Source: Desulfocapsa sulfexigens DSM 10523
GTDB lineage: Bacteria; Desulfobacterota; Desulfobulbia; Desulfobulbales; Desulfocapsaceae
DNA length: 32,000 bases
Direction of reading: 5' to 3'
Assembly (NCBI RefSeq): GCF_000341395.1
Contig: NC_020304.1
Location: 3,900,001-3,932,000 of the forward strand
Shown: piece after piece, positions 11,163-32,000 of the stretch
Layout: every line of letters begins with the position of its first letter
Numbering within the stretch: position 1 is the first letter of the stretch
Notes under the pieces: model-generated
Databases searched by the model: none
Told to the model about the DNA's origin: nothing
The model's input: only the letters and a program-made list of their open reading frames with translations
Made by a program: the position numbers and the translations under genes

Positions 11163-11187
11163 AAACTTTTATTTTTCTAATAGAATA

Positions 11188-15797: not shown

Positions 15798-15873
15798 AAC
15801 ACCTCTCCCGTACCATCATTTACAATCTTTACCACAACCGTATCCATCAGAGCACATATCAGAGAAAAAAGTT

Positions 15874-16449: not shown

Positions 16450-16689
16450 AATTCCTCCAATAAACAATACATTTGTCATTTATTCCTGTTTACAACCTCA
16501 CCTTCCTCTTTTATACAGTATCTTGTGCCTTTTTTCCGAAATAATCCATAAAAAATTCCACTCAACGATAAGGTTTATAAAATACACAACAATTTATCTT
16601 TTCCCTTCATTTCTCCATTTTTTTTCGATATCATCAACTCAGTTTTTTTTCATCAATAAAGCATGTTATATTAGTGGTTCAGGAGCTCC

Positions 16690-18402
16690 ATGGCAGGAAA
16701 AAACAGAATAACAAAAATTCCAGCTGATACATTGGTAAATAAAAACAGCAACAGATTTTACCTGATGCTGTCGACGCTTGTCATCAACCTGCTGGCTCTG
16801 GCAATGCCTATTATGATGCTGCAGACCTATGACCGTATCCTTCCAAGTCACGGAATAGGTACCCTGGTGTTACTCATCTCAGGAGTTGCCTGTGCGGTAA
16901 CGCTTGAAGTCGGCCTTCGTCTGGCACGATCATATCTCACCGGCTGGTCCGGGGCAGTTTTTGAACATAAAACTGCTTGCGCCGCCATGTCTCACCTGCT
17001 CAATGCCAATGTTCAGGCATTTGAAAAACAGGGTGCAGGAGCGTACATCCAAAAGATGGCGGCAATCACCAGATTGCGAAGTTTCTACTCCGGCCAGGCA
17101 CTGATGACCATGGTGGACCTTCCCTTTGTTATAACTTTTCTTGTCCTGATTGGCTATATCGGAGGAGATCTGGTTTTTGTACCACTCACTCTGTTTATTC
17201 TTTTCTGCATTATATCCTGGATTGTGGGAATACGCCTCAAACAGGAGGTAAAAGAACAGGACTTCAGCGACAAGATCCGCTACAACTTTCTCATAGAGAC
17301 CCTGACCGGTATTCACTCCATAAAGAGTCAGGGGCTTGAAAAATTCTTTTTCCGCCGTAACGATCGTCTTCAAAATCGTATCTCGGCTGCTCACTTTCAA
17401 GTTGCACTTTCCAATAATATCGCCATGAGCTCGGGAATGCTGTTTGGCCAAATCATGACCGTATCGGTTGTATCTTACGGGGCGATCAAGGTTTTGAACG
17501 GTGACATGGGAACCGGTGGTCTTGCCGCCTGTCTCCTGCTGTCTGGAAGAGTCATGCAACCCGTGCAGAGGGCATTGGGGCTATGGACCAGATTTCAAAG
17601 CTTTTTTATCGACAAAAAAGAACTGGAAGATATTTTTGCCCTCCCAGGATCGTCCTACGGTGACACTGAAACAGTGATGCAGCCCACGGGCCTTGTCAGC
17701 TGTAGAAACCTCAGTTTTTCTTACGGAGAAAAAAGCTCTCTTCTCTTCGACGACATCAACCTCTCGCTGCGAACGGGCCAGTCCATATCTCTTATTGGAG
17801 AGCAGGGTTCGGGCAGAACAACATTTATCAACCTTCTCACCGGCTTGTACAAACCGACAGAGGGGCAAATCACCATCGATGGAGCAAATCCATCACAGGT
17901 TTCTCCTGTACAGCTTGCCTCACATATTGGATATCTCCCGGAAAAAGGAGCTATTTTCCACGGAACGATCATGGAGAATCTTACTTTTTTTGGAACAATA
18001 CCTGAAAAGGACGCCCTGAAAGCTGCCGAGCATCTTGAAGTGAGCGAAGCGGTGGCACTTTTACCGAATGGATATAAAACAGTACTCAGCGATTCCGTAA
18101 CCGACCCCATTCCTCCAGGCCTCAAACAACGAATCTCAATAGCACGCGCTCTCGCCACAAGGCCCCGGATTATTCTGTTCAACAACGCCGACAGAAATCT
18201 TGACCGCTCCGGCTACAACCTGGTCTTCAGGATACTCGGGCGCCTCAAAAAAAACACCGTCCTTATCATCATTTCCGATGATCGCAATATCCTTCGACTG
18301 GCAGACAAGGAATACTACATCGTCAACGGAAAACTAGAGGAGAACGCTCCTGTTGACTCCAAACTCTTCTCGGTTCTGCCATTCAGAGAGTTACGGGCAT
18401 GA
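16690..18402 (+). CDS. T1SS-type ABC permease/ATPase (PrtD-like length, no N-terminal peptidase domain) with a degenerate nucleotide-binding domain
   Basis: A six-TM exporter domain is followed by an NBD. Walker A reads GEQGSGRTT (K to R, 17797-17823), the signature reads PPGLKQR (18112-18132), Walker B reads IILFNNAD (D,E to N,N, 18169-18192), and the H-loop region reads IISDD. An AGGAG Shine-Dalgarno sequence lies 4 nt upstream of the ATG. Confidence 0.85.
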   Translation: MAGKNRITKIPADTLVNKNSNRFYLMLSTLVINLLALAMPIMMLQTYDRILPSHGIGTLVLLISGVACAVTLEVGLRLARSYLTGWSGAVFEHKTACAAMSHLLNANVQAFEKQGAGAYIQKMAAITRLRSFYSGQALMTMVDLPFVITFLVLIGYIGGDLVFVPLTLFILFCIISWIVGIRLKQEVKEQDFSDKIRYNFLIETLTGIHSIKSQGLEKFFFRRNDRLQNRISAAHFQVALSNNIAMSSGMLFGQIMTVSVVSYGAIKVLNGDMGTGGLAACLLLSGRVMQPVQRALGLWTRFQSFFIDKKELEDIFALPGSSYGDTETVMQPTGLVSCRNLSFSYGEKSSLLFDDINLSLRTGQSISLIGEQGSGRTTFINLLTGLYKPTEGQITIDGANPSQVSPVQLASHIGYLPEKGAIFHGTIMENLTFFGTIPEKDALKAAEHLEVSEAVALLPNGYKTVLSDSVTDPIPPGLKQRISIARALATRPRIILFNNADRNLDRSGYNLVFRILGRLKKNTVLIIISDDRNILRLADKEYYIVNGKLEENAPVDSKLFSVLPFRELRA

Positions 18403-20582
18403 GTGATGATTTTCTAAAAAAAAGCAGCTTGCTGCAAAGCAGGATCGAACCCTATGGCTGGCTTTCCAAAACCGGCCTGCCTTCGCCCTTCGCCTCATGT
18501 GTGGCACCGCTCCTCACTGCTCTTTCCTGGAACGGAGAAGTGCATCAGATCTGTGAATCCCTGCCCCACTACCCTGACCAGATCGACCGAGTGGATTTCA
18601 TTAACACCATGGCAAATCTGAATTATCAGATTCAACATGCCAGCGTAAAACAATTAACAGGTTTTGATGCACGCCTTGCCCCCTGCCTCGTTGTTGTCAA
18701 TGAGGGGGGAGACCAAGAGATCCCTTATATTGTCTTTAGCGACTCAAAAAGTACTCTCCACGCCTTCGATGGAAAAAGTCAGGAATGTGTTCCCTTTACT
18801 ACAATCACAAAAAGCAGTGGAACAATTTACACTTTTCAGGCCCTCGATGAGAATGGACTGGATAAAAACAAACTGAACCAGCAGGTCCATGAAAAACCGA
18901 GCCGCTGGGCCCGGTTTCTGGGCAGCCGCTTTACTCCTGTCTTCAAGCAGATATTTGTTTCAAGTTTTGTGATCAATCTGCTGGCCCTTGTATCATCACT
19001 TTTTGTCATGGCCGTATATGACAAAGTAATCGGCAACAATTCCCCTGACACCTTGTATTTCTTAGCAATTGGTGCACTTATGGCCATAGGTTTCGAGTCT
19101 TTGCTTCGCTACCTGCGCGCAAGAAGTCTTGCCTTTTTCGGGGTTCGCCTTGACTCCATTATCACCCAATCCATTTTTGAGCGTCTCCTGTATCTTCCAC
19201 CCCGTATCGTGGAAAGTTCATCCATTCCGGCACAGATTGCCCGCCTGAAAGATTTCGACTCCGTCCGTAATTTCTTCTCAGGCCCCGTGGGGACGAATCT
19301 GGTTGAAATTCCCTTTACCCTGATTTTTATTTTCACCATTTATTTTATCGGAGGACCACTGGTACGCATTCCCATTCTTCTGGCGCTTTTTTATTCTTTA
19401 CTCGGGTTCATCATGCTTCCCCGGATTCAGAACTGCACTGAAGAGGGAGCCGTTGCCAGCGTTCAGCGACAGACGCTCATGGTGGAAACCATGCAGAAAT
19501 TCAGACCTATCCGTATCCATGGCGCCATGGATACCTGGTTTGAGCGCTTCAGGAAACTCTCGGGTATCTCAGCATACACCTCCTTTAAAAGCTCCCAGCA
19601 GACAGCATTTGTGGAAGCAATTGCCTACGGACTTTCGGTCGGAGCGGGTGTAGGTACTCTGGTTTACGGTATCTTTCTGGTCTGGGAACAACAAATCACA
19701 ACAGGTGCACTTATTGCCAGTATGATGCTGGTATGGCGAGTTATTTCTCCCCTGCAATCCATCTGCAACTCTCTGGTGCGTATTCGTTATATTTTCCGCA
19801 GCGTGGGTCAGGTGCACAAACTCTTGCGCTCGGCCCCTGAAAACAGTACTACCCTTTCTGATCAACCATTCACTATCACCGGAAATATTTCATTCAGTGG
19901 CGTGGGCCTGCGCTATACTGCAGATCGAGGAGCAGTCTTCAGCGGAATGACGCTCAACATCAAGGCAGGTGAAGTTGTTGCCGTGGCAGGTCCCAGCGGC
20001 TCCGGGAAATCATCTCTGCTGAAAATCATTATAGGCCTCTATCCACCGCAGATGGGTGCAGTACTGATAGATGGGCTTGATATACGACAACGGGACCCCA
20101 TAGCACTGAGGCGAAATATTGCCTATACCCCGCAAACACCGGAGCTTTTTCACGGCTCAATCGAACAAAACCTGCGCATGTGTAAACCCGACGCAACCCC
20201 TGAAGAACTCAACAACTGTTTATACCTTGCAGGGGCACTCGACGATGTCAATCACTTTGAAGAAGGTATCTCGTACTTTATTGGAGACTACAAATCTGAA
20301 CAACTCTCCACCACCCTCACCTATCAGTTAACACTGGCACGCACCTACCTAAGGGATGCATCTATCTTTTTATTTGATGAAATGCCGCCAACACTTCTAG
20401 GAAAAAAAACCGGCATATTTTTCCGTGAATTCTTGCAGAACAACCGGGGCAGCAAAACCATGCTCTATGTAACGGACCACGAAGAAGACATACTCAAGGC
20501 TGACAAATTAATCTATCTGACCGGAACCGGTCAGGTGCTGATCGGAGATCCTGCCGAACTACTGACAGCTCTCAAAAAATAA
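18399..20582 (+). CDS. T1SS-type ABC permease/ATPase with N-terminal C39-like domain; canonical Walker A/B but degenerate signature motif
   Basis: It overlaps the upstream ABC gene by ATGA. The N-terminal ~160 aa resemble a C39 peptidase-like domain (SCVAPLLTALSWNGEVHQICESLPH...). Walker A GPSGSGKSS (19989-20015), Q-loop YTPQTPELF and Walker B IFLFDE (20364-20381) are canonical. The signature position reads LSTTLTYQLTLAR (20304 onward). Confidence 0.85.
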   Translation: MSDDFLKKSSLLQSRIEPYGWLSKTGLPSPFASCVAPLLTALSWNGEVHQICESLPHYPDQIDRVDFINTMANLNYQIQHASVKQLTGFDARLAPCLVVVNEGGDQEIPYIVFSDSKSTLHAFDGKSQECVPFTTITKSSGTIYTFQALDENGLDKNKLNQQVHEKPSRWARFLGSRFTPVFKQIFVSSFVINLLALVSSLFVMAVYDKVIGNNSPDTLYFLAIGALMAIGFESLLRYLRARSLAFFGVRLDSIITQSIFERLLYLPPRIVESSSIPAQIARLKDFDSVRNFFSGPVGTNLVEIPFTLIFIFTIYFIGGPLVRIPILLALFYSLLGFIMLPRIQNCTEEGAVASVQRQTLMVETMQKFRPIRIHGAMDTWFERFRKLSGISAYTSFKSSQQTAFVEAIAYGLSVGAGVGTLVYGIFLVWEQQITTGALIASMMLVWRVISPLQSICNSLVRIRYIFRSVGQVHKLLRSAPENSTTLSDQPFTITGNISFSGVGLRYTADRGAVFSGMTLNIKAGEVVAVAGPSGSGKSSLLKIIIGLYPPQMGAVLIDGLDIRQRDPIALRRNIAYTPQTPELFHGSIEQNLRMCKPDATPEELNNCLYLAGALDDVNHFEEGISYFIGDYKSEQLSTTLTYQLTLARTYLRDASIFLFDEMPPTLLGKKTGIFFREFLQNNRGSKTMLYVTDHEEDILKADKLIYLTGTGQVLIGDPAELLTALKK

Positions 20583-20599
20583 CAGGTAAGCAAACCATC

Positions 20600-21904
20600 A
20601 TGGCAAAAAAAACGAAACATGATAACAACCAGCAGCTTCGGCTTCTCGGGCTCACAGCAGTACTTGAAGAGGCGACCACTCCGTACCTGATCCGCACCTC
20701 AACCCTTATTGTTTCAGTGGCATTTCTTTCCTTTCTGGTCTGGACAGGTTTTGCTAAAATCAAAGAAGTGGCAAGAACCGTAGGAGAGATCGTACCATCC
20801 GGTCACATTCAGGTCATTCAGCACCTTGAGGGAGGGATCGTTGATGAAATTCTTGTGGAGGAGGATGACCTCGTCAATCCCGGCCAGGTTTTGCTGCGAA
20901 TTCGTGGAGAATCCATAAAAGCCGATCGCGCCCGCCTAGTCACCAGAAAGAACCTTCTCGAACAACGTCATGCCCGTCTCACTGCATTTCTAAACGACAA
21001 GACCCCTTCTGATCCTTCTCACTCGGACAATGCTATCCTCTCTGGAATGTTCCTTGCTCAAAACGACGAGATTCAGGTATTAAAAGAACAGATTGTTCAG
21101 AAAAATGAACAAATAAGTCTCCTCAAACGTGAACAGGCAACCATCCTGAAAAATCTTTCAATTGCCAAAGAATCTTTCGAGACTCAAAAAAAACTTTATG
21201 AGGAACGATTAGTTCCCCAAACGAACTACCTCAATGCTCTGCAGGAAATCAATGCCCGAAAAGGACAGCTCGATGCCATGGTTATCCAGATCAGACAGGC
21301 TGAACAGGCAGTTAAAGAGTTTGAGTGGCGCCTCCAGTCACAGGGTTCCAAAAGCAAGGATAATGTTCTGCAACAATTAGCTGTACTTGAGGATGACCTT
21401 GCAGAAAACAAGGATTTAATTGAAAAACTCAATCAGCAAATCAGTCGTCTGGAACTCAAATCTCCTACCTATGGTCTTGTCAAAGGACTCGAGATCCATA
21501 CCATTGGAGGTATTATTCCACCTGGTCAATCCCTGATGGAAATAGTCCCCCTGGGTGAGGAACTGGTTGCAGAAGTCAAGGTGTCACCGAACGATATTGG
21601 CCATATAAAAACGGGTGACCATGTCACGGTAAAGGTGACTACTTTTGATTTTTCCCGCTACGGATCCATAGATGGTACATTAACCGCCCTATCAGCAACA
21701 ACATTCACAAACCCACAGGGAACACCGTATTATAAAGGTATGATAAAACTTAGTAAACACTATGTTGGAAATGACCCAGAGATGAACAAGGTTCTCCCCG
21801 GTATGATAGTCAATGCAGATATTATCACCGGTGAAAAAAGCCTGCTTGCCTACTTATTAAAGCCTATTCACCGCTCGTTGAATTCGGCATTTATCGAACG
21901 CTGA
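20600..21904 (+). CDS. HlyD-family type I secretion periplasmic adaptor (membrane fusion protein)
   Basis: It has one N-terminal TM helix, a lipoyl-like segment (GHIQVIQHLEGGIVDEILVEEDDLV), a long coiled-coil and a C-terminal beta-barrel ending ...GEKSLLAYLLKPI, which is typical of HlyD/PrtE proteins. Confidence 0.88.
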   Translation: MAKKTKHDNNQQLRLLGLTAVLEEATTPYLIRTSTLIVSVAFLSFLVWTGFAKIKEVARTVGEIVPSGHIQVIQHLEGGIVDEILVEEDDLVNPGQVLLRIRGESIKADRARLVTRKNLLEQRHARLTAFLNDKTPSDPSHSDNAILSGMFLAQNDEIQVLKEQIVQKNEQISLLKREQATILKNLSIAKESFETQKKLYEERLVPQTNYLNALQEINARKGQLDAMVIQIRQAEQAVKEFEWRLQSQGSKSKDNVLQQLAVLEDDLAENKDLIEKLNQQISRLELKSPTYGLVKGLEIHTIGGIIPPGQSLMEIVPLGEELVAEVKVSPNDIGHIKTGDHVTVKVTTFDFSRYGSIDGTLTALSATTFTNPQGTPYYKGMIKLSKHYVGNDPEMNKVLPGMIVNADIITGEKSLLAYLLKPIHRSLNSAFIER

Positions 21905-21959
21905 CAAGCCAGGATAGCACTCCATTTTAATTTTAATTTAAAAAAAATCTCAAAATCAT

Positions 21960-22898
21960 ATGACTATCACACAGGATGCTCCTCTTTCAATACTTGCCGT
22001 AGATGACAATCCAACCACACTACGCCTCCTCGAAACCATGCTGAAGCGTAATAAATTCGATGTTCGCACTGCCGTAAATGGAGTCGAAGCCATGGCTGTT
22101 CTCAGCGAGTCTCATGACACCATTGACATTATTCTTCTTGACAGAATGATGCCTGAGATGGACGGAATCGAAGTCTGTAATGCCATGAAGGCGGATGAAA
22201 ATCTACGCCACATCCCCATTATAATGCAAACCGCAGCGGACCGCCCTGAAGAGATCAGTGAAGGAATTGCAGCCGGAGTCTTTTATTATCTCACCAAGCC
22301 ACTGAATGTTGAAATGCTGCTCTCAATTGTTGAGGCTGCAGGAAAGCAGATCCGCCGCCACAGACAGTTGCGCCACGAAATGGAACGACGCAAAATCAGT
22401 TTTGGTCTTGTTCAGATTCTGAAATGTACCTTCAGGACATTGGATGAAGCCGAAGGACTTTCCATATTTTTGGCAAACTATTTTGATGATCCCGACAGGA
22501 CCCTCACCGGTATTTCAGAGCTTCTGGTAAATGCGGTGGAACACGGAAACCTTGGTATCAGCTATGCGGAGAAAAGTGAACTGGTGGCAGAAAAAAAATG
22601 GCAAAACGAGATCAACAACCGCCTCAACGATCCACGCTATGGAGATCGAAGGGTAACTGTGATATTTGAACGTAAGGAAAAAGCCTGCTATATCCAGATT
22701 ACCGACGAAGGGGATGGCTTTGACTGGAAGCAATACATGGAGGTTGATCCCTCACGTGCCATGCACAATCACGGTCGTGGAATTGCCATGGCCAACATGC
22801 TCTGTTTTAACAAACTGGTATACAATGAGAAAGGAAATCAGGTTACCGGAATAATAGAAAGCGATACAAGAGAGGATAAAGACGATTTTTGGGATTGA
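21960..22898 (+). CDS. response-regulator receiver fused to a GHKL ATPase/kinase domain (RsbW/SpoIIAB-like)
   Basis: The REC domain has all key residues (VDDNP, LLDRMMPEMDG, MQTAA, TKP). The C-terminal half has an N-box ELLVNAVEHGN, a G1 box ITDEGDGFD and a G2 box GRGIAMA. Confidence 0.8.
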   Translation: MTITQDAPLSILAVDDNPTTLRLLETMLKRNKFDVRTAVNGVEAMAVLSESHDTIDIILLDRMMPEMDGIEVCNAMKADENLRHIPIIMQTAADRPEEISEGIAAGVFYYLTKPLNVEMLLSIVEAAGKQIRRHRQLRHEMERRKISFGLVQILKCTFRTLDEAEGLSIFLANYFDDPDRTLTGISELLVNAVEHGNLGISYAEKSELVAEKKWQNEINNRLNDPRYGDRRVTVIFERKEKACYIQITDEGDGFDWKQYMEVDPSRAMHNHGRGIAMANMLCFNKLVYNEKGNQVTGIIESDTREDKDDFWD

Positions 22899-23071
22899 GA
22901 TGAAGCCCATTTCACTTTCGTAATCTGGAGTACAGAACCTTCTAGGTATTTGCCTAGGTGTTTTGCCTAGGATACGGCTAATCACCTAAAAATACATGGA
23001 CATTGCATTCATTCCTTTCACAAGAAACAACGGAACGCTTATTGCATCACCCAACCTGTAACCACAACAAC

Positions 23072-23153
23072 TGATAGCAGTTTGCCAAACTCATCGTAAG
23101 GTGAGGACGGAAAGCCACGGGTCCTTTAGAGGATAGCCGGGTTGCCAGCATCA
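23072..23153 (+). promoter_or_regulatory. candidate GEMM-I (cyclic-di-GMP-I / cyclic-dinucleotide) riboswitch aptamer in the leader of the giant gene
   Basis: Manual comparison with the Vc2 aptamer as I remember it. The elements occur in the same order: a GCCAAA junction, a 6-bp hairpin CTCATC-GTAA-GGTGAG with a GNRA loop, GACGGAAAGCC (one mismatch to the conserved GACGCAAAGCC), a second hairpin CGGGTCC-TTTAGA-GGAT(AG)CCG, and TAGCCGGGTTGCC (Vc2 has UAGCGGGGUUACC). Confidence 0.5.
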
Positions 23154-23174
23154 AGGGGTAACCCGGTTTTTTTT
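23137..23174 (+). terminator. rho-independent terminator overlapping the 3' strand of the candidate aptamer (expression platform)
   Basis: CCGGGTTGCC (23137-23146) pairs with GGTAACCCGG (23157-23166) to form a 10-bp stem containing one G-U pair. The loop is 10 nt, and T8 follows at 23167-23174, about 46 nt upstream of the ATG at 23221. Confidence 0.75.
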
Positions 23175-23220
23175 GTGTTCGCCATACTGTTTATCCAAAA
23201 AATAGAGTATCGGAGTCCTT

Positions 23221-26200
23221 ATGTCTTCAGAGAACAATCCAGTTAGCTCTTCTTCCAGCCCCATTGGCAATTCAACAGAGAATACTCAACAGGACTGGAT
23301 GGATCTTGACCAGCAGGGAGTAGCAGGAGAAACCCTTAAGGCAAAGAAATGGACGACCCAGCGACGCCTTGTCGACGATGCATCCTATCAAGGCAACATT
23401 CATACAGGAACTGAAGCGACTACTGAGCTGAATAAAAGCGACACTCTCTCCGGGGATGCCCTGAACTATCAGTCAATTGCTAATGAAGGTAAAGAGACAC
23501 AGGACAACAACGGCCCAGAGGAATTTTCAGACGAATCCCAACGGGGCTTATCACCCGACATGGATTCCCTGAACAGAACCGACACACCATCGGCCACATC
23601 TGCAGCATACGAACATACGACTGAAGCTGAAAGTCTTGTTACATCCAGCGGAAGTGACACACTGAAATTTGAAGAACATATTGATGAAGCCAAATCACAT
23701 GGACGCACTGCGACTGAAAACAAATCTACAACACGATTGGCCCAGCCTGCAGCAACAGAAACGCCTCCGGAAGATCTCCCCCTGGAGAATAGCAGTCAGG
23801 AAAGGAACACAGCCACCGTATCGGAGTTACAGCAGAAATCAGAGATTAGTGACGCTGTTGATCCCTCCACACAAACACCCACCACAGCTCCTGGATCTGC
23901 CCCTGAACCTGTACCTGACCATGAAATAATCACAGAAAGTAGTGCATCCGCGCCTATTTTGACCACAGCTGATGCTATCGGTGTCGAAGATACAATGATA
24001 GCAATTGATATTTCAAGTCAGCTTACAGACACCGACGGTTCAGAATCCCTTGCTATCACCATAGGCGGTGTTCCTGAAGGAGCATTCCTTTCAGCCGGTA
24101 CAAGCCTTGGTAATGGAGAATGGCAGCTCACTCCGGATCAGCTCGAAAATCTCAGCCTGACACCACCTGCCAATAGCGACGAAGACTTCAGTCTTACGGT
24201 CACCGCAACCAGCACAGAAAGCCATGGCGGTCAGCAAAACTCCAGATCTGAAATCATCGATTTTTTTATAGAAGCTGTTCCCGACACGCCAGAGCTAACA
24301 ACTGTCGCCGCAACCGGCACAGAAGACACGGCAATTACCCTCGACATCAGCACTGCTCTCACCGAGCTTGATGGTTCAGAAATACTCTCAGCAATCACAC
24401 TATCAGGCCTTCCTGAAGGTTCCATTGTATCCGCCGGAACACAAAACATTGATGGTTCCTGGAGTGTTGCACAAGACGACCTTGAAGGACTACAGCTCAC
24501 TCCACCAAAAGATTATTCCGACAATTTTGAAATCAATTTGTCGGTCACGGCAACCGATTCCAATGGTTCCACTTCAACCAGCACTGCAGTCCTTCCAGTC
24601 ACTATCACAGCAGCGCCCGACGAAGCAGTTATCAGTGGTAGTGGAGCTATACTTGCCGAAGATACCCTTCAAACAGCGTCAGGTCAGTTGACTGTTGTTG
24701 ATCCCGACGCAGATGAGGCCCACTTTACCGCTGAAACGATTGAAGGAACATACGGTTTTCTTGACGTTGCGACAGACGGATCGTGGACATACAATCTCAA
24801 CAACGACGCTGACACAGTGCAGCAGCTCGGTACTGGTGATACTGTTACCGATACCCTCACGGTAACTTCTGCTGATGGCAGTACCCATGATCTGGTCATG
24901 ACCATAACCGGTACAAATGACGCCATTAGCGTAGTGTCAGATAGCAACACAGCACCAAACACTATTATGGAGAATGCCGCAGACGGCACAGAAATCCACC
25001 TCTCTGGACTGGCAACCGATGCAGATGGAGACGCCATACTCTATACACTCGTAGATGATCAAGGAAATGAAATCACCAATGGTCCATTTAGTATTAATAG
25101 AGAAAGTGGCGTTGTTACTCTTCAGGATCGTAGCCTGATAGACTACGAAACTGAAAGCAGTCACACCCTGCATATCCAGGCAAGCAGTGCAGACGGCACC
25201 TCGAGCACCAGTGATTTCCAGGTACAGATTGAAGATGTTGACATTATCAAAACAACCGATCTTGGTGGTGATGTAAATGGCACTGCTGTTACCTTTACAG
25301 TAACAGGAGATCATTACGACCCAAAAAACATTCAAGATGTAGGTGCCGGATCCCCCCACTACCGTATCAGGGTCAACGGCGAACCTCTGGAAATTGACGG
25401 CCAGAACACTTTTTCAGTTGAAGCCAACCGTGGCCATATTGAAGATAACCATGTTGTCCGAGACGGAAATGATGTGGAACTGGTGACTTTCAGGGTACCC
25501 CAAGGAACTGATGTCGATTCTGTTTCAATTGAATTCATTAACGATGCCTATGATACCTCCAGTGACAGGGATGGTGACGGAATCACCACCGAAGATCGAA
25601 ACCTTGTAGTAAAAGAGTTGAATATCGGAGGCACTGTCAACGATGACGGAAGTATTGACGGAGGCACGACCTTGCAGGCTGAGGATATCGAAGTGTCCCA
25701 ATACATTGCCAGTAATGGTGCTGACGTCTCTGGACGCGAAGTTATGCCATGGCAGGGAAGCATGACCTTTTATCCGGATGGTGTGCCACAGGAAGCACCC
25801 ATATTGGTCGATGATAACGCAAATATTTCAGAAGACAGTGCTGTAGTTCTTACAGGCAATATTTTATCCAATGATACCGATGCAAACAACGGGAGCAACT
25901 TCAGTGTGACTGGATTATCTGGAGTCACTGTTCTCCAGGATAATTTCGATGATGGCAATGCTGATGGCTGGGTAGAAATCAGTTCCAATGGCGCTGATAC
26001 TGATAGATGGCAGGTAGTTGACGGGGCTATTGGTGAAAAAAGCAACTCAGCAAAGGGAATCATGGCCCATGACATGGGGGATTCTGCCGACAGCACCAAT
26101 TACGAGGTATCAGTTGATATACATGCCAATGCCGGGGATACGTACAATAACAATGTTGGCCTTACCTTTGGTTATGAAGACAATGCCAATTATTACATGA

Positions 26201-29200
26201 TTAAATGGGATGACTACTCCGACAACTATTCAGAAAGCAGCACCCACAAAGATTTTCAGCTGATCAAAGTTGAGGATGGCCACCAAACAATAATTGACCA
26301 GATAGATCACGCCGAATTACCCAGTGATTTCACATTATCAGTCAATGTATCCAACGATAGCGGCATATCAATATCTGTTGACGGTGAAGAAAAACTCAGA
26401 GCTGCAGATGAACATCCAGCCATCAACACAATTGGCCTCAATACTGGCGATAACGATAGCGGTATCAGTTATGACAATGTATCGGTTATTAATAATGATA
26501 TTCCAATAGAAGATACAACATCTATTGACGGTACCTATGGTACATTAACCCTTAACCAGGATGGCAGTTATTCTTACGAACTCAATGATGCCAATAACGA
26601 TGTACAAATGCTTCATGATGGTGAACAGCTCACAGAGACCTTCGCTGTCAATGTCCTTGAAAACCACTCAGGAGAAGCAGGAACTGAAACACTGAACATT
26701 ACCATTAATGGAAGCAATGACGGCCCCGTTGCAATAAACGACAGTACAGTATCAGAACTCGCAACAGTCTTCCAGGATGATTTTAACGATGGCAATACTG
26801 ATGGCTGGACTGAGATTAGTTACAACGACGCTGATACTGGCAATTGGCAAGCTGTTGATGGTGCTATTGGCGAAAGAAGTAATTCCGCAAGAGGAATCAT
26901 GGCCCATAACATGGGTGATGATGCAGAAAGCACCAATTTTGAAGTTTCGGTGGACGTTCATGCCAACTCTGGACAAACTGGAAATAATAATGTTGGAATT
27001 ACATTTGGATATGAAGACAACAGTAATTACTACATGGTCAAGTGGGATGATTACTCCGAAAACTACTCAGAAAGCAGTACCCATAAAGATTTCCAGTTAA
27101 TCAAAGTTGAAAATGGCCACCAAACAATAATTGATCAAATAGATCAGGCAGATCTGCCCAGTGATTTCAACTTGTCAGTAAATGTGTCCGACGATAATGG
27201 TATAGCTATTATGGTTGATGGTAAAGAAATGCTGACAGCAGTAGATGAACATCCTGCTATTAACACGATCGGCCTTAACACTGACGACAATGACGGCGGC
27301 ATCAGCTACGATAATGTCTCGGTTAAAGTAGCATCCGACCAGACAATTGTGACCGACGAAGATAGTTCCATTGTTGTCACTGCTGACAGTCTCCTTGCCA
27401 ACGATACAGATGTTGAGGGAGACACTCTGTCCATTTCCGCTGTATCCGAAAATGTGCTTGATGTTGATGGCAATATTGTTGGCACCGCCTCCCAGGATGA
27501 CAGTGGCAACATCGTATTCACCCCTGGTGATGCCCTTGATGCTCTTGCGGAAGGTGAGAGTACAAATGTCAACTTCACGTACACGGTCAGTGATGGCCAG
27601 GGTGGAACTGATACAGCCACCGCTACGATCACCGTCACAGGAAAAGATAACGACCTCACCTATGTTTCTGAATCAGCTGGCTATAAAAATGTCGTCGGAA
27701 TGTATGAAACCGACGACCAGGGCAATCCTGTCAGTGGTACCGTGATAATCGACGATCAAAATGGCATGGCAGGTGGCACCCATCTTGCCGATCTGGAACC
27801 TGGCAATTATGAATTTTTCATTATAGCCAACGGTGCAAATGAGGTGGATACTGAGAGCAGTATCAGCTTTGATACCAGCGGAGATAAACCAATACTTTTG
27901 ATTGATGGAGAACCCGCTGCCCACCCCGTCTATTTCACCGAACCAGGTTTTAACCCTGACGGCAAGGATCATTTTCATTTCGAATCAGACGGTGAAGGTG
28001 GCACCTTCATCAAGATAGAAGACTTACCCGACCTTGGGGATGCTGATTTTGAAGATGTGGTGCTTCACACCAACTTCGAGATGGATGACAGAACAGCCAG
28101 TGGCGAGCTTTCTGACGGTGATCAGGCAGCAAACAGTGTGGTGGAAAATACTGCTCCAGAGGCCATCGCTGACATAGCTGACATCAAAGCCTTTGAACTA
28201 CCCGAAGGCGGCAGTATTGTCTCAACGGAAAGCAATACCATCGTGGTCAAAGGTGAAATTGTCACTGAAGGTGACACGGGGTCGAGTGTTGACCAGTGGA
28301 CATTTCACCATGGCGGAGGACCATTGACCATCGATACCCTTTCGGAGAGTGGCACAAACTTCACTGACATTGACGGTGACGGTGCTAAGAACCACATCGA
28401 CACCATGATGCGTCTCTATGACGAGGACGGGAACCAGGTCGCCATGAATGACGACAGCAGCATGCAGACCGGTGACGGTTCAACCAATGATTACTTCTCT
28501 CATATTCAGGACTCCTATATCCAGGTCGATGATCTGCCTCCCGGTAATTACTCTCTTGCCATCGGGTCCTGGGAGCTTACCCAGGATGAAGTAGCAAATG
28601 GCCATAACGACAACTCTGATCAGAATATACGCTATGACCATGCCCAGGATACCGGCCCCTATCAAATAACCCTCACAGGAGACGTATCCTTCTCAGAGGA
28701 AAGTCCTCTTGCCACTGATGAAGACACAGGACTCACCATCAACGCTGACACCCTTCTTGCTAATGATAGCGATGTTGATGGGGACAGCCTCAGTATCGTG
28801 GCAGTGGGTACACCGGTGGATGCAGACGGCAAGGTGGTGGGAACCACCGAACTTGTAACAGAAAACGGCGAACAGCAGATTCGCTTTGTACCGGGTGCTC
28901 AGCTCGATTCCCTTGAAACTGGAGAATCAAGCAGTGTCAGCTTCAGTTACACCATCGATGACGGCCAGGGGGGGACCGATACAGCCACTGCTACGATCAC
29001 CGTTGCAGGAACAGATAACGACCTCACCTATGTTTCTGAATCAGCTGGCTATAAAAATGTCGTCGGAATGTATGAAACCGACGACCAAGGCAATCCTGTC
29101 AGTGGTACCGTGATAATCGACGATCAAAATGGCATGGCAGGTGGCACCCATCTTGCCGATCTGGAACCTGGAAATCATGAGTTTTTCATCATAGCCAACG

Positions 29201-30366
29201 GTGCAAATGAGGTGGATGCTGAAAGCAGCATCAGCTTTGATACCAGCGGAAACAAACCAATACTTTTGATTGATGGAGAACCCGCCACACACCCCGTCTA
29301 TTTTACCGAACCTGGTTTTAACCCCGACGGCAAGGATCATTTTCATTTCGAATCAGATGGTGAAGGTGGTACCTTCATCAAAATAGAAGACTTACCCGAC
29401 CTTGGGGATGCTGATTTTGAAGATGTGGTGCTTCACACCAACTTCGCGATGGATGACAGGACAATAGTAGAAGAATCCATACTTGACGAACAGTTAAATA
29501 ATTCCATAGCAACAGGGATTGCCACAGCCGGATTTGATACTTCCATAACCGATACTGAAGCAAACGGCATCCATAGCGAAGCGATGGAAGATCTCTCTCT
29601 CAATATGCCATTCCTTACTCTGCCAGGTGACGCTGAAGGGAGCGAACAGGCGGCCGAACCCCAGGAAACAGCAATTGTAACGCAGGACACAGTTCTTCAG
29701 GCTGACACCCCTGTTTCAGAATCATTCACGGAAGACAGCCAACAGAGTTTGAATCCACCCACAGATGATGACCTGGCGCTTTCACTCCCCTCCATATCTC
29801 TCAATGATCTCTTTGACGAACCGGCTGACAACAATTACGATCCTGCAGTAACTACTGAAAACGAAACAAGCGCTGTTAGTAATACCGATGAGAATACGAA
29901 TCCTGCAAATGAAGCAGCAACAGACACAACTGATGAGACATCGACTACCGAAGCTGTGGGTCAGGAACCTCAGGAAGAACTTGTAGATGATGCCACTGAT
30001 TTACATAGTATTGCTGGCAGTGAGGTTGAAGAAACTGAATTAAATACCGATAACTTACATATAGATCTTGCGAGTGATACTGAATCCGAGTCGTCAACAA
30101 ATTCAGAGGACGAAAGCAGCAGTCTTGATCGATTTGCAGCAACATCAGCCAATGCATCGGAAGATAACGATAACTCTCCTCTTGACAACTTCTCTGCCTG
30201 CAGTCAGTCCGAAGAAACATCAGAATTCTCATCGGTTGAAGAAATTGACACCATAGACGACAATGCCACAGACCAGGTAGACGATGCCGGGTTAAATGAT
30301 GTTAATGCTATCCAGGAAGACCTTTCCCAAGAAGCGGAACAGGTTGACGCGAATGGTGCATGTTGA
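23221..30366 (+). CDS. 2381-aa mosaic adhesin-like putative T1SS substrate (tandem DTDGSE-type repeats, VCBS, cadherin-like, CBM-like, 2x LamG/lectin-like, 2x cadherin-like+DUF4114, PPC-like; acidic disordered termini)
   Basis: A single uninterrupted ORF preceded by a GGAG Shine-Dalgarno sequence 5 nt upstream. The recognised segments are: VCBS-like (GTYGFLDVATDGSWTYNLNND...TGTNDA at 24640-24925, and GTYGTLTLNQDGSYSYELND at 26488-26745); cadherin-like (24958-25245); FINDAYD...DRNLVVKELNIGG, which resembles a Ca-dependent CBM (25246-25760); DEDxxxxxxADxLLANDTDVxGDxLS plus FTYTVSDGQGGTD, which resemble tandem-95/cadherin-like repeats; GYKNVVGMYE...FIKIEDLPDLGDADFEDVVLH, which resembles DUF4114; and a PPC-like beta-sandwich (28280-28683). 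Confidence 0.9.
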   Translation: MSSENNPVSSSSSPIGNSTENTQQDWMDLDQQGVAGETLKAKKWTTQRRLVDDASYQGNIHTGTEATTELNKSDTLSGDALNYQSIANEGKETQDNNGPEEFSDESQRGLSPDMDSLNRTDTPSATSAAYEHTTEAESLVTSSGSDTLKFEEHIDEAKSHGRTATENKSTTRLAQPAATETPPEDLPLENSSQERNTATVSELQQKSEISDAVDPSTQTPTTAPGSAPEPVPDHEIITESSASAPILTTADAIGVEDTMIAIDISSQLTDTDGSESLAITIGGVPEGAFLSAGTSLGNGEWQLTPDQLENLSLTPPANSDEDFSLTVTATSTESHGGQQNSRSEIIDFFIEAVPDTPELTTVAATGTEDTAITLDISTALTELDGSEILSAITLSGLPEGSIVSAGTQNIDGSWSVAQDDLEGLQLTPPKDYSDNFEINLSVTATDSNGSTSTSTAVLPVTITAAPDEAVISGSGAILAEDTLQTASGQLTVVDPDADEAHFTAETIEGTYGFLDVATDGSWTYNLNNDADTVQQLGTGDTVTDTLTVTSADGSTHDLVMTITGTNDAISVVSDSNTAPNTIMENAADGTEIHLSGLATDADGDAILYTLVDDQGNEITNGPFSINRESGVVTLQDRSLIDYETESSHTLHIQASSADGTSSTSDFQVQIEDVDIIKTTDLGGDVNGTAVTFTVTGDHYDPKNIQDVGAGSPHYRIRVNGEPLEIDGQNTFSVEANRGHIEDNHVVRDGNDVELVTFRVPQGTDVDSVSIEFINDAYDTSSDRDGDGITTEDRNLVVKELNIGGTVNDDGSIDGGTTLQAEDIEVSQYIASNGADVSGREVMPWQGSMTFYPDGVPQEAPILVDDNANISEDSAVVLTGNILSNDTDANNGSNFSVTGLSGVTVLQDNFDDGNADGWVEISSNGADTDRWQVVDGAIGEKSNSAKGIMAHDMGDSADSTNYEVSVDIHANAGDTYNNNVGLTFGYEDNANYYMIKWDDYSDNYSESSTHKDFQLIKVEDGHQTIIDQIDHAELPSDFTLSVNVSNDSGISISVDGEEKLRAADEHPAINTIGLNTGDNDSGISYDNVSVINNDIPIEDTTSIDGTYGTLTLNQDGSYSYELNDANNDVQMLHDGEQLTETFAVNVLENHSGEAGTETLNITINGSNDGPVAINDSTVSELATVFQDDFNDGNTDGWTEISYNDADTGNWQAVDGAIGERSNSARGIMAHNMGDDAESTNFEVSVDVHANSGQTGNNNVGITFGYEDNSNYYMVKWDDYSENYSESSTHKDFQLIKVENGHQTIIDQIDQADLPSDFNLSVNVSDDNGIAIMVDGKEMLTAVDEHPAINTIGLNTDDNDGGISYDNVSVKVASDQTIVTDEDSSIVVTADSLLANDTDVEGDTLSISAVSENVLDVDGNIVGTASQDDSGNIVFTPGDALDALAEGESTNVNFTYTVSDGQGGTDTATATITVTGKDNDLTYVSESAGYKNVVGMYETDDQGNPVSGTVIIDDQNGMAGGTHLADLEPGNYEFFIIANGANEVDTESSISFDTSGDKPILLIDGEPAAHPVYFTEPGFNPDGKDHFHFESDGEGGTFIKIEDLPDLGDADFEDVVLHTNFEMDDRTASGELSDGDQAANSVVENTAPEAIADIADIKAFELPEGGSIVSTESNTIVVKGEIVTEGDTGSSVDQWTFHHGGGPLTIDTLSESGTNFTDIDGDGAKNHIDTMMRLYDEDGNQVAMNDDSSMQTGDGSTNDYFSHIQDSYIQVDDLPPGNYSLAIGSWELTQDEVANGHNDNSDQNIRYDHAQDTGPYQITLTGDVSFSEESPLATDEDTGLTINADTLLANDSDVDGDSLSIVAVGTPVDADGKVVGTTELVTENGEQQIRFVPGAQLDSLETGESSSVSFSYTIDDGQGGTDTATATITVAGTDNDLTYVSESAGYKNVVGMYETDDQGNPVSGTVIIDDQNGMAGGTHLADLEPGNHEFFIIANGANEVDAESSISFDTSGNKPILLIDGEPATHPVYFTEPGFNPDGKDHFHFESDGEGGTFIKIEDLPDLGDADFEDVVLHTNFAMDDRTIVEESILDEQLNNSIATGIATAGFDTSITDTEANGIHSEAMEDLSLNMPFLTLPGDAEGSEQAAEPQETAIVTQDTVLQADTPVSESFTEDSQQSLNPPTDDDLALSLPSISLNDLFDEPADNNYDPAVTTENETSAVSNTDENTNPANEAATDTTDETSTTEAVGQEPQEELVDDATDLHSIAGSEVEETELNTDNLHIDLASDTESESSTNSEDESSSLDRFAATSANASEDNDNSPLDNFSACSQSEETSEFSSVEEIDTIDDNATDQVDDAGLNDVNAIQEDLSQEAEQVDANGAC
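23953..24624 (+). repeat. two tandem 112-aa (336-nt) coding repeats of the DTDGSE/LDGSE type
   Basis: Copy 1 reads P-ILTTADAIGVEDTMIAIDISSQLTDTDGSESLAITIGGVPEGAFLSAGT...LTPPANSDEDFSLTVTATS. Copy 2 reads P-ELTTVAATGTEDTAITLDISTALTELDGSEILSAITLSGLPEGSIVSAGT...LTPPKDYSDNFEINLSVTATD. The offset is exactly 336 nt. Confidence 0.85.
25933..27324 (+). repeat. duplicated ~185-aa LamG/concanavalin-like lectin-fold domain (copies 25933-26487 and 26770-27324, period 837 nt) separated by a VCBS-like unit
   Basis: LQDNFDDGNADGWVEISSNGADTDRWQVVDGAIGEKSNSAKGIMAHDMG...ISYDNVSV aligns with FQDDFNDGNTDGWTEISYNDADTGNWQAVDGAIGERSNSARGIMAHNMG...ISYDNVSV. Protein identity is high by eye, and I estimate roughly 80% at the nucleotide level. 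Confidence 0.85.
27613..28094 (+). repeat. copy 1 of a 482-nt near-identical direct repeat (end of cadherin-like unit plus DUF4114-like domain)
   Basis: It aligns base-for-base with 28981-29462 at an offset of exactly 1368 nt. I counted about 20-25 substitutions and no indels, which is roughly 95% identity. Confidence 0.9.
28981..29462 (+). repeat. copy 2 of the 482-nt near-identical direct repeat
   Basis: See copy 1. The twin antisense shadow ORFs at 27673-27978 and 29041-29346 in the track reflect the same duplication. Confidence 0.9.
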
Positions 30367-30557
30367 ACAAACAAAACCGGATAACCTGACAGTTTGTCGG
30401 ATATCTTTTTCAGGGCCAGAGGTGAATTGTTTAAAGTTAAGCAGTGACAAAGCTACTTTAATAACATAGGATTATGGAGTAGCATCTGTTTATGTCATGT
30501 ACAGAATAGTTTTTAATCCTGTATGTTAGTATTTACTCTTAACTTGTATTCATTTGC

Positions 30558-32000
30558 ATGATTGTGACATTTTGTGCCATCTTAGGATTGTCACCAAAAA
30601 TTCGTTCAAACATCAGTACGCTGGTGTTGTGTTTAAGTACACTGTGGCTGACAGGATTATTACTTCCAACTCCTGCCCATACAACATCCATCCGTCTTCA
30701 TGAGATCAAGACGACAGATTCTTTTACCACCAGCAGCCTTTCACTACCGAGAACTATAACTACAAAAGAAACAGAAGACCAGGCAACAACTGAATTTTTC
30801 AGCCCCGGTTCAACACGTTCCGAGCCCGATATTCTCAAGGTATATAAAGCACTGTTCAAGCAAACCTGGGAACAATCACCTGATATTCAGGTTGCCAGGA
30901 AAATGAAACAACAGAAAGCAGCAGAGCAATACACCGCCTGGGCCAACAGAATTTCCCCACAACTCGATTTTGAAATTGCTCAGAAACGTTTCCTGAACAA
31001 AGACCTAGCCGACGACACCATACAGACCAGCCTTGAAGAAGAAGTCCCATACACTGACGGAAAGGATATAACAGACTGGAATTTTGATCTGGATATTCCT
31101 CTCTACCGCCGTCCCCTTTCACTGGCTATTGATGTATCACGGATAGAATACGAGCTCGCAGCCAATAATCTTGAAATTAAAACCCGTGAACTTGATGCCC
31201 GGCTCCATGAATTGCTTGGGAACTACATGGTTGCCTCCTACAACCTGCATAATCTCGAAAACTCCATTTTTATTTCCGGTGAACATGTTAACAAAATTCA
31301 GCGTGGTTACGATTTACGGGACCAGACCAAACTGGCCCTACTGAGAGCTCAGGCGAACCTGAAGGAACTTGAAGCCAGAAGAGACCTCAACGGACAGAGA
31401 CGTGACACCACATTTCGGGAGCTTCTCGATTTCACTGCTATCCCCGAGAATGACCCCACTTGGCACTGGCTAAAAGAACTTCTTAACAGTGAACAACGTA
31501 CAGCAGGCTGTATTAACAGCTTTTCAGCATTACAGACAGGCACTGAAAAGATGCAGCCATTTCTGACTGAAGCATTAACGGAGGCGGAGCTACGTGATTT
31601 TTTTGTAAACAACAGCCTGCTCTATAAAAAGATTCTCCTCGAACGTAATCTCGGCAAAATCAAAGCAAAAAAATATACGCAACAGGAATGGCCGGCACTC
31701 TTCGTACGAGGAGAGTTTGACAGAAAAGCAGACACGCAGTTTAACGACTACAACGGTGAGGGCTCCATTGGCCTGGTTCTAAGCGTACCACTCTTCAGTG
31801 GCGGAACAATATTCAGTAATATCAAAACAGAAACTATGGCTTCCGATATTACTTCCATAGAAGAACATTCAACTATTTTAAGAACCTTCAATTCCATTGC
31901 CAATAAGAAAAAAACAATTTCCAGCTTACGCGATATATATGAAAAACAGCAAATCCACCTGCAGCAGCAGCAGGAGATTGTACGACTATCCCTCAAGTCC
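30558..32000 (+). CDS. TolC-family outer-membrane efflux/secretion protein, C-terminus beyond the window edge
   Basis: Absent from the track because it is open at the window end (the frame is in phase through 32000). My translation is MIVTFCAILGLSPKIRSNISTLVLCLSTLWLTGLLLPTPAHT... (signal-peptide-like), then ...PDILKVYKALFKQTWEQSPDIQVARKM...LDIPLYRRPLSLAIDVSRIEYELAANNLE...GLVLSVPLFSGGTIFSNIKT.... This is the typical OEP/TolC repeat pattern. Confidence 0.75.
   Translation, partial: MIVTFCAILGLSPKIRSNISTLVLCLSTLWLTGLLLPTPAHTTSIRLHEIKTTDSFTTSSLSLPRTITTKETEDQATTEFFSPGSTRSEPDILKVYKALFKQTWEQSPDIQVARKMKQQKAAEQYTAWANRISPQLDFEIAQKRFLNKDLADDTIQTSLEEEVPYTDGKDITDWNFDLDIPLYRRPLSLAIDVSRIEYELAANNLEIKTRELDARLHELLGNYMVASYNLHNLENSIFISGEHVNKIQRGYDLRDQTKLALLRAQANLKELEARRDLNGQRRDTTFRELLDFTAIPENDPTWHWLKELLNSEQRTAGCINSFSALQTGTEKMQPFLTEALTEAELRDFFVNNSLLYKKILLERNLGKIKAKKYTQQEWPALFVRGEFDRKADTQFNDYNGEGSIGLVLSVPLFSGGTIFSNIKTETMASDITSIEEHSTILRTFNSIANKKKTISSLRDIYEKQQIHLQQQQEIVRLSLKS

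Follow-up and report, generated by a model that had tools for sequence, protein, structure and literature searches.

Sequence analysis of a type I secretion locus with two ABC proteins and an LvrC-like regulator in Desulfocapsa sulfexigens DSM 10523

Gene content and conservation of the locus

A stretch of 32,000 nucleotides of Desulfocapsa sulfexigens DSM 10523 (contig NC_020304.1, positions 3,900,001 to 3,932,000; the whole stretch is called the window below and its first letter is position 1) was analysed by computation on sequences, comparative genomics and predicted structure. From position 16690 to its end the window holds six plus-strand open reading frames (ORFs) with short gaps between them, which probably make up a complete type I secretion system (T1SS) of a distinct subtype conserved across phyla, with export as the predicted function. 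With high confidence, the sequences point to a functional, conserved T1SS subtype with its cargo gene under control of a cyclic di-GMP (c-di-GMP) class I riboswitch and a sigma-54 promoter. The six genes are as follows.

16690..18402, plus strand: ABC1, an ATP-binding cassette (ABC) half-transporter of 570 aa without an N-terminal accessory domain, its nucleotide-binding domain (NBD) predicted to be catalytically dead (Pfam, NCBIfam, motifs)
18399..20582, plus strand: ABC2, a half-transporter of 727 aa with an extra N-terminal domain of ~175 aa and intact Walker A and B motifs
20600..21904, plus strand: HlyD-family type I secretion periplasmic adaptor (membrane fusion protein, MFP), 434 aa (TIGR01843, HlyD_3, HlyD_D23)
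21960..22898, plus strand: REC-GHKL regulator, a REC plus Bergerat-fold (HATPase_c_2) protein of 312 aa, LvrC-like (Pfam, match to PDB 9QIH)
23221..30366, plus strand: cargo of 2381 aa, very acidic, Cys-poor and non-RTX (Pfam, NCBIfam, composition)
30558..32000, plus strand: TolC-like outer-membrane factor (outer-membrane protein, OMP), running off the window end (PF02321, OEP)

An earlier note on this DNA had given the order as ABC1-ABC2-HlyD-REC/GHKL-leader-cargo-OMP, all on the plus strand, and had called the locus five-gene; the ORFs together with Pfam and NCBIfam agree with the order, and the genes counted are six. The profile hidden Markov model (HMM) searches it had proposed for each protein confirmed the ABC, HlyD, REC, HATPase_c_2 and OEP assignments. 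ABC1 and ABC2 each carry ABC_membrane (PF00664) and ABC_tran (PF00005), as in exporters with fused transmembrane domain and NBD, and their genes share the 4 nt ATGA. The adaptor scored 338.5 bits on TIGR01843 (cutoff 208.65), the model of T1SS HlyD-family adaptors. The last gene matched OEP with an E-value of 4e-16 and TIGR01844 weakly, as a TolC-like factor; its start is ambiguous between ATG 30558 and GTG 30624, and its orthologues, 3' of the cargo gene in the related loci L011, L047 and L089, are complete at ~526-528 aa.

For comparison, 80 loci were retrieved from species-representative genomes of Desulfobulbales, Gammaproteobacteria (Ca. Endobugula sertula, Cellvibrionaceae, Marinagarivorans), Rickettsiales (including Ca. 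Megaera), Micavibrio and other Alphaproteobacteria, and Bdellovibrionota. The 4-nt overlap of the two ABC genes was found in 68 of 73 loci. The order ABC1-ABC2-MFP-REC/GHKL was kept in 59 of the 61 loci with enough sequence downstream, though ABC1 identity was just 39-48%; one of the two loci that break it has the REC-GHKL gene on the other side, beyond the cargo gene. This neighbourhood comparison had been set beforehand as a test that could refute the linkage, and it came out in favour of the linkage, with the ABC pair, adaptor and REC-GHKL gene almost always in succession and an acidic cargo gene adjacent. The linkage might still be fortuitous, an ordinary T1SS lying among unrelated neighbours, since REC-GHKL paralogues without a T1SS exist and the riboswitch is missing from most related loci; the shared gene order across five lineages at such ABC1 identity speaks against this, and we regard it as extremely improbable.

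The paired ABC proteins and their cargo

ABC1 and ABC2 are 24% identical and, judging by their sequences, are ancient paralogues with translationally coupled genes. Motifs were compared in alignments of 79 ABC1 and 68 ABC2 sequences, the window protein being counted in each set. ABC1 of the window, which is 100% identical to a database protein of D. sulfexigens DSM 10523, has GEQGSGRT, PPGLKQR and LFNNAD and no H-loop His. Throughout the family the catalytic Glu after Walker B is never present (Asn in 68/79) and neither is the H-loop His (Asp in 79/79), the non-canonical signature PPG[L]KQR is almost invariant, and the Walker A Lys is retained in 65/79 sequences, with Arg in the Desulfocapsa clade. 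By these motifs the ATPase domain is catalytically dead in ABC1 proteins as a family. In ABC2 the Walker A Lys is found in 68/68 sequences and the Walker B Asp-Glu in 67/68, and the Q-loop Gln is mostly present; the signature varies and has neither of the two glycines, and the H-loop His occurs in just 14 of 68. The earlier note had described both proteins as motif-degenerate, which holds in full for ABC1, whereas ABC2 of the window has intact, usable Walker A and B motifs beside a degenerate signature, LSTTL.

TIGR03375, TIGR01846 and TIGR01842 were the top models for both proteins, all below their curated cutoffs; the best family of both was TIGR03375 (LssB type; ABC1 362 bits, cutoff 693), and no curated NCBIfam model scored above cutoff for ABC1, ABC2 or the REC-GHKL regulator. 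The closest solved relative of ABC2 is HlyB 7SGR (E 1e-52, residues 177-722).

Each ATP site combines the Walker motifs of one subunit with the signature of its partner, and one dead and one candidate working site are therefore predicted: the dead site would consist of the ABC1 Walker motifs and the ABC2 signature, and the working site of ABC2 Walker A/B and the PPGLKQR of ABC1. In TM287/288, TmrAB and BmrCD, one consensus ATP site is likewise combined with a non-catalytic one (PMC7756269, PMC8277102). The present pair shows the same motif pattern, an NBD without catalytic carboxylate and H-loop His beside a partner with degenerate signature; in contrast, those proteins are drug or peptide exporters without MFP or OMP partner, and here the presumed active site has the unusual PPGLKQR and often no H-loop His. 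We suggest with moderate confidence that ABC1 and ABC2 work only together, as an asymmetric heterodimer in which one of the two ATP sites is functional, in the manner of TM287/288-type exporters. The frequent 4-nt overlap supports this reading, as does a fusion in Azospirillum sp. B510 (plasmid pAB510c; L085, 8887-12978), where one protein of 1363 aa consists of an ABC1-like half, an extra N-terminal domain and an ABC2-like half, the halves following the order of the two genes. The fusion gene adjoins a HlyD gene and a divergent gene for a 5519-aa Ig-like protein, and no REC-GHKL gene is present. Weighing on the other side, the ABC1 signature is not LSGGQ and the ABC2 H-loop His is not conserved, so that even the "active" ABC2/ABC1 site is unusual and is a candidate for ATP turnover at most.

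The N-terminal ~175 residues of ABC2 match the start of the TIGR03375 model, from its position 3, and a database search with residues 1-180 gave one match. Comparison by hhalign with the C39-like domain of HlyB was weak but colinear (E 0.012, probability 3.5%), and comparison with SpoIIAA/STAS gave no match. A 42-sequence profile of the domain matched nothing among PDB sequences, the best Pfam C39 score had an E-value of 0.22 in one orthologue, with no C39 catalytic domain detected, and the AF2 model built from two sequences was too poor to use, with a predicted local distance difference test (pLDDT) score of 38. Our best guess is a divergent C39-like domain without the catalytic His.

The cargo contains 20% D+E, 3% K+R and 2 Cys and has no signal peptide. 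The earlier note had described a substrate without RTX repeats, and indeed neither a strict nor a relaxed match to the GGxGxD nonapeptide was found in its 2381 aa. Pfam and NCBIfam identified cadherin-like, VCBS, Big_9, DUF4114, thrombospondin-type Ca-binding and CBM60-like domains. In sequence, these features are typical of non-RTX T1SS adhesins, and the cargo is probably a surface adhesin. A comparably acidic, Cys-poor protein of 561 to >4400 aa stands at the cargo position in every related locus, its gene lying 3' of the regulator in Desulfobulbales and Bacteriovoracaceae and directly 5' of ABC1 in Alphaproteobacteria, Rickettsiaceae and Gammaproteobacteria. Conservation of the last 200 aa is confined to sub-clades. 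A short module near the N-terminus is conserved more widely.

23272..23445, plus strand: conserved N-terminal cargo module, aa 18-75 (...LKAKKWTTQRRLVDDASYQGNIHTG...), defined by HMM, motif and database search

With an HMM of window cargo residues 20-66, all Desulfobulbales cargos were matched (E 1e-15 to 1e-25) and no other protein reached significance. The motif A[KDR]x[WYFM]...[DE]D...GN[ILVM]x[YT]G was found in 27 of 2622 ORFs, all at the cargo position, with matches at residues 29-68 and zero matches elsewhere in 667,648 residues; six of the 27 ORFs had played no part in writing it. A search of 1.84 billion representative proteins with cargo residues 18-75 gave just 27 matches (E<=1e-3); with few exceptions these fall at residues 18-75 of the matched protein, which may be as long as 5081 aa. 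The module has no Pfam match. We regard the module as solid within Desulfobulbales by sequence, and the motif across clades as a lead. With low confidence, the module may be a recognition or retention element, possibly read by the N-terminal (C39-like?) domain of ABC2. Three points detract from this account of the cargo: the adhesin assignment is by domain content only, the cross-clade motif is a regular expression written after seeing the data, and outside Desulfobulbales the module HMM fell short of significance, with E 1.6-5 for the correctly placed matches in L044 and L072.

Two recent internal duplications of 300 nt each were seen in the cargo gene (27567-27866 and 28935-29234, 92% identity; 25927-26226 and 26764-27063, 76% identity). 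They are repeated DUF4114-containing and LamG-like segments, and such repeats can give assembly collapse or length variation. In the Rickettsiaceae metagenome-assembled genomes (MAGs) of L033, L035 and L036, Gly/Asp-rich giant cargos of >3000 aa with GGDGDD-type repeats are encoded 5' of ABC1 and share a C-terminal segment (DDTDDW...SNW.ED) unseen in other clades.

Databases name ABC1 an 'ABC-type bacteriocin/lantibiotic exporter' or a 'peptidase domain-containing ABC transporter', the ABC2 N-terminal domain is placed where C39 peptidases sit, and the conserved cargo motif lies where bacteriocin leaders are found. The pair could accordingly be read as a peptide/bacteriocin-type or small-molecule exporter with the giant protein merely nearby. 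This we hold to be highly improbable, as the adaptor passes the T1SS-specific TIGR01843 cutoff, a TolC-like gene lies in the locus, LssB is the closest family and HlyB the closest structure, a C39 catalytic domain is not detectable in ABC2, and the large, acidic, signal-less protein adjoins in every clade and is the sole carrier of the motif.

Three secretion systems were compared with the locus. The MARTX system of Vibrio (RtxB-RtxD-RtxE/TolC) exports a very large protein by means of two distinct ABC proteins, for which a heterodimer has been suggested (PMC3034196, PMC4316617), and is thus also an atypical T1SS needing two ABC proteins for a giant cargo. Its gene order, however, is ABC-MFP-ABC with unlinked tolC, in contrast to ABC1-ABC2-MFP with a 4-nt overlap and the OMP gene in the locus; its regulators are unlinked, its cargo is an RTX toxin, it has no REC-GHKL gene, and only in the present system does one ABC protein lack the N-terminal domain and all catalytic residues. 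In the LapBCE-LapA system with LapD/LapG of Pseudomonas fluorescens (FrhA and CraA in V. cholerae), c-di-GMP decides adhesin display (PMC3032545, PMC6890996). The likeness consists in a giant non-toxin adhesin, an LssB/LapB-like ABC protein (ABC1 bears the JGI label 'LapB'), an important N-terminal element of the cargo and c-di-GMP control. By contrast, Lap has one ABC gene, LapA has RTX repeats, the N-terminal module of the present cargo has no Pfam match, and c-di-GMP acts there post-translationally, by way of LapD as receptor and LapG as protease, whereas here it presumably acts at the level of the mRNA, by way of a riboswitch. Pfam showed no LapD or LapG domain in the scanned window genes (5418-16479 and the six locus genes) or in 126 neighbouring ORFs of related loci. 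On these grounds the locus was assigned neither to the MARTX nor to the Lap type. HlyB-HlyD-TolC shares the tripartite architecture and an N-terminal accessory domain on the ABC protein, HlyB being the closest solved structure to ABC2; it differs in its symmetric homodimer with two canonical ATP sites, its RTX cargo and an operon without an embedded signalling protein.

The earlier note could not map this combination to a described system. Literature searches for the cassette, for two-ABC T1SSs and for RF03167 likewise gave no description of it; their coverage was partial and novelty is unproven. As far as the searched literature shows, the cassette is a previously undescribed variant of type I secretion.

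The leader of the cargo gene

The spacer between the regulator and cargo genes, where the earlier note had suspected a structured leader acting as an RNA switch, contains four features, and a candidate activator gene lies upstream of the operon.

22941..22968, plus strand: weak hairpin and T-tract after the regulator gene, a candidate operon terminator or upstream activator site (terminator-like match)
23031..23046, plus strand: sigma-54-type -24/-12 promoter element CGGAACGCTTATTGCA (2 mismatches to TGGCAC-N5-TTGCW)
23075..23150, plus strand: predicted c-di-GMP-I riboswitch aptamer (Rfam RF03167, 60.3 bits, gathering 59, E 5e-12)
23135..23176, plus strand: predicted intrinsic terminator, 12-bp stem 23135-23146/23157-23168 followed by U8, as riboswitch expression platform (minimum free energy fold)
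14445..15797, minus strand: NtrC-type sigma-54-dependent response regulator (REC, Sigma54_activat and HTH_8; Pfam)

The aptamer match belongs to the Rfam c-di-GMP-I clan and bears out the suspected switch. In the model 19 of 21 pairs form, and the binding-site positions G23084, A23111 and C23145 are canonical, so that ligand binding is predicted. A riboswitch was present in the window and eight Desulfocapsa-clade loci, with orthologous aptamers at 51-64 bits (RF01051 range 51.4-63.8, gathering 35), some assigned to RF01051 and some to RF03167. It was not found in the close relative L012, other Desulfobulbales or Bacteriovoracaceae, and is therefore taken as a clade-specific add-on outside the conserved core cassette. 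In comparison with Vc2-type c-di-GMP-I (GEMM-I) riboswitches, the aptamer consensus, the binding-site nucleotides and the standard terminator expression platform agree and nothing essential differs; what stands out is the place before a T1SS cargo gene and behind a sigma-54 promoter.

The 5' arm of the terminator shares seven nucleotides (23137-23143) with the 3' strand of aptamer P2. The fold energy was -41.5 kcal/mol with the terminator and -34.2 kcal/mol when constrained to the aptamer, so the terminator would be favoured without ligand. Stem and U-tract are conserved in the riboswitch-carrying orthologues. Such an architecture is that of an ON switch, in which c-di-GMP would prevent termination.

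The top Rfam family is the c-di-GMP-I-GGC variant RF03167, just above its gathering score, and Geobacter-type GEMM-I variants sensing cyclic GMP-AMP (cGAMP) exist in related Deltaproteobacteria; the element could thus be a GGC variant or a cGAMP-type GEMM-I with another ligand than c-di-GMP. We consider this very unlikely. The "GGC" in the name of RF03167 presumably denotes three binding-site nucleotides, and at model position 37 (23111) the window and all orthologues shown have A where the RF03167 consensus has G, which led us to reject the GGC-variant assignment; at the junction, G23084 and C23145 agree with canonical c-di-GMP-I. Where the P2 loop is longer, close orthologues match RF01051 instead, so the RF03167 assignment reflects P2 loop length (the short loop of the window makes Rfam prefer the GGC-variant model) and not the binding site. 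Near-identical aptamers are split between the two families in this way (window 23075-23150, L006, L008, L009, L011, L021, L005, L089), and RF03167 matches at the gathering threshold can be ordinary c-di-GMP-I riboswitches.

Upstream of the aptamer, GG and TTGC of CGGAACGCTTATTGCA are invariant in eight Desulfocapsa-clade loci, one of them without riboswitch, in a spacer that otherwise drifts. Five Desulfobulbales loci that are more distantly related (L027, L014, L016, L018, L024) also have the form GG-N8-TTGC between regulator and cargo genes. The conserved GG/TGC at fixed spacing, together with the NtrC-type gene at 14445-15797, indicates a sigma-54 promoter by sequence. A homologue of this sigma-54 regulator lies immediately 5' of the T1SS operon in the Desulfocapsa-clade loci extending upstream (L005-L011, L021, L089), and its product is plausibly the candidate activator of the cargo promoter. 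The hairpin at 22941-22968, TGCCTAGG, is partly conserved in the alignment of regulator-to-cargo spacers.

The REC-GHKL regulator and its proposed role

The regulator matched Response_reg (E 1.6e-25) and HATPase_c_2 (30.0 bits, cutoff 27.4), in agreement with the embedded two-component or partner-switch-type protein of the earlier note. An alignment of 62 orthologues shows the phospho-acceptor residues of REC kept in at least 58 (D58, D59, T60, K60), and the GHKL core residues are invariant in all 62: N-box (N, E-H-G), G1 (DxGxGF) and G2 (GxG within HGRGI). The sole full-length solved relative is PDB 9QIH, LvrC of Leptospira interrogans, matched by phmmer at E 1.5e-14 over residues 8-296 and by the C-terminal domain by itself at E 8.4e-10; 9QIH was also the top Foldseek match (E 2.7e-17) of an AF2 model with pLDDT 81.

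In LvrC, a REC domain is joined to an RsbW/SpoIIAB-like Bergerat domain that was crystallised with ADP-Mg; LvrC is phosphorylated by the REC-controlled kinase LvrB and is interpreted as an anti-sigma factor (PMC13269768). The window protein shares with it the REC-Bergerat architecture, including the phospho-acceptor residues and the N, G1 and G2 boxes, and a length of ~300 aa, and LvrC is its best sequence and fold match. The identity is ~22%, and LvrC of the LvrA/LvrB/LvrC system is, in contrast, a global virulence regulator and not a member of a secretion operon. In sequence and predicted fold, the REC-GHKL protein is an LvrC-like phospho-regulated switch; its precise role is assigned with low confidence.

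A setting of phosphorelay genes is likewise common to LvrC, which receives phosphate from a REC-containing kinase relay, and to the present loci. In 29 of the 50 loci with at least 2.6 kb downstream, mainly outside Desulfobulbales, the gene next after REC-GHKL is a large REC-containing one. Six of these genes were scanned and encode hybrid histidine kinases (HisKA-HATPase_c-REC), five also with Hpt; a hybrid kinase is the usual next gene outside Desulfobulbales. In Rickettsiaceae a separate small Hpt protein follows, and in the Desulfocapsa locus L010 a hybrid kinase lies immediately 5' of ABC1. The further neighbours, 126 ORFs of 30 loci, had REC, OEP, HATPase_c, Trans_reg_C, HisKA and Hpt as recurrent Pfam families. 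In L054 (Methyloligellaceae) the cassette is flanked by a gene for a c-di-GMP phosphodiesterase of REC-EAL type and one for a hybrid kinase whose sensor domain is NIT (nitrate/nitrite), located as follows.

5761-7038 and 16952-20761 of L054: the two flanking genes

These flanks hint that c-di-GMP and environmental sensing converge on the secretion system.

The reverse linkage is weaker. Three of the six REC-GHKL homologues with inspected contigs sit in the cassette; the other three form a paralogue group, 64-66% identical to the window protein, outside any T1SS (L003 10001-10981, L087 7001-7948, L088 313-1263). One of these paralogues adjoins genes for an MshE-type ATPase and a HDOD protein, and two lie 3' of yajC, near an adenylate/guanylate cyclase gene. 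Their position away from a T1SS argues for a generic soluble partner.

Because of the LvrC homology and these orphan paralogues, we favour sequestration of a sigma factor. By analogy with LvrC, phosphorylation of REC may decide whether the Bergerat domain keeps its partner bound or lets it go, the likeliest partner being a sigma factor, which has also been proposed for LvrC; we put this forward as a tentative possibility that falls somewhat short of probable. Through the switch, a phosphorelay responding to the environment would then govern how the secretion and cargo genes are transcribed. Several observations weigh against sequestration. No sigma-factor or STAS family was among the 25 most frequent families of the 126 neighbouring ORFs, and the cargo promoter looks sigma-54-type. 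To our knowledge, RsbW-type anti-sigma factors do not act on sigma-54. Rickettsiales have very few sigma factors. Finally, the partner sigma factor of LvrC itself is still unidentified (PMC13269768), so the homology does not fix the mechanism of the REC-GHKL protein.

Instead, the REC-GHKL protein could gate the transporter directly, its Bergerat domain, when REC is in one of its phosphorylation states, binding or Ser/Thr-phosphorylating a T1SS component, so that the phosphorelay switches secretion; the candidate targets are the dead NBD of ABC1, the N-terminal domain of ABC2 and the N-terminal module of the cargo. The gene lies inside the secretion operon, right after the adaptor, in 59 of 61 loci and at least five lineages, and the lack of a linked sigma or STAS gene in the neighbour scan and the sigma-54-type cargo promoter also favour such gating. 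Furthermore, the dead NBD is under strong purifying selection at non-canonical positions, as a regulatory interface would be, and one orphan paralogue adjoins another secretion ATPase, of MshE type. Against it stand the interpretation of LvrC, the only characterised relative, as an anti-sigma factor, the orphan paralogues at non-secretion loci, which point to a generic soluble target, and more distant two-ABC relatives such as the Azospirillum locus, which do without a REC-GHKL gene. On balance direct gating, for any of the three targets, is a serious rival but less likely than sequestration. The specific combination of a signal-gated class of type I secretion, in which a phosphorelay from hybrid kinase through Hpt to REC-GHKL acts directly on an asymmetric ABC1/ABC2 transporter, with the dead ABC1 NBD as a regulatory subunit and the cargo recognised by its N-terminus (with or without a C-terminal signal), appears unlikely.

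With sequestration as the favoured role of the regulator, the locus would work as follows. The ABC1/ABC2 pair, the HlyD adaptor and the TolC-like channel would export the adjacent acidic, signal-peptide-less, non-RTX giant Ca-binding protein, which would then act as a surface adhesin. A sigma-54 activator, plausibly the NtrC-type neighbour, would start transcription of the cargo gene, and high c-di-GMP would switch adhesin production on via the riboswitch.

The region upstream of the operon was also inspected.

16450..16689, plus strand: AT-rich promoter region of the secretion operon, 30% GC

The earlier note had reported this AT-rich region, which does stand out at 30% GC against 47%, and had taken the locus for an island. 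No other compositional difference was seen, and a foreign genomic island was ruled out by the equal GC content inside and outside the locus (46.3% and 47.0%). The preceding block was said to be housekeeping genes; the locus does follow other genes, but these are not purely housekeeping, as they include the sigma-54 response regulator. In the spacer, blocks at ~16510-16540 and 16599-16636 (TTTTCCCTTCATTTCTCC...TTTTCGATATCATC) are conserved among 8 Desulfocapsa-clade loci despite differing upstream neighbours. A sigma-70 promoter scan of this and the regulator-to-cargo spacer gave no convincing match, and block 16599-16636 (CTTCAATTCTC...TTTTCGATACCATC in the 8-locus consensus) is unlike a sigma-70 promoter. 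An alternative sigma factor might recognise it, and such a factor is what an anti-sigma-type regulator would be expected to act on. In L009, from one Desulfocapsa MAG, 3-4 tandem copies of the palindromic unit CACCCCTCAAGGGGGTATAAA are inserted in the ABC1 promoter region (~9510-9600). A PilZ-domain protein of 164 aa, a possible c-di-GMP receptor, is encoded at window 10668-11162 on the plus strand, ~5.5 kb 5' of the secretion locus and among metabolic genes.

T1SSs are usually presented as simple three-part, constitutive machines with a homodimeric ABC motor. If the reading given here is true, a widespread lineage, held by sulfur-cycling Desulfobulbales, predatory Micavibrio and Bdellovibrionota, aquatic Rickettsiales and marine symbionts, has a motor in which one ATPase subunit is dead, a phosphorelay output protein of its own built into the secretion operon and a cargo that carries an N-terminal signature. 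The riboswitch on the cargo mRNA would be a second c-di-GMP route to a T1SS adhesin, in place of LapD/LapG proteolysis. Annotation would gain as well, since the ABC genes are now labelled bacteriocin exporters or generic ABC proteins. For the recently described LvrC class of REC-controlled anti-sigma-like proteins, which still has no partner, the locus offers a concrete setting amenable to genetics, and as D. sulfexigens DSM 10523 is a cultured strain, such work is feasible.

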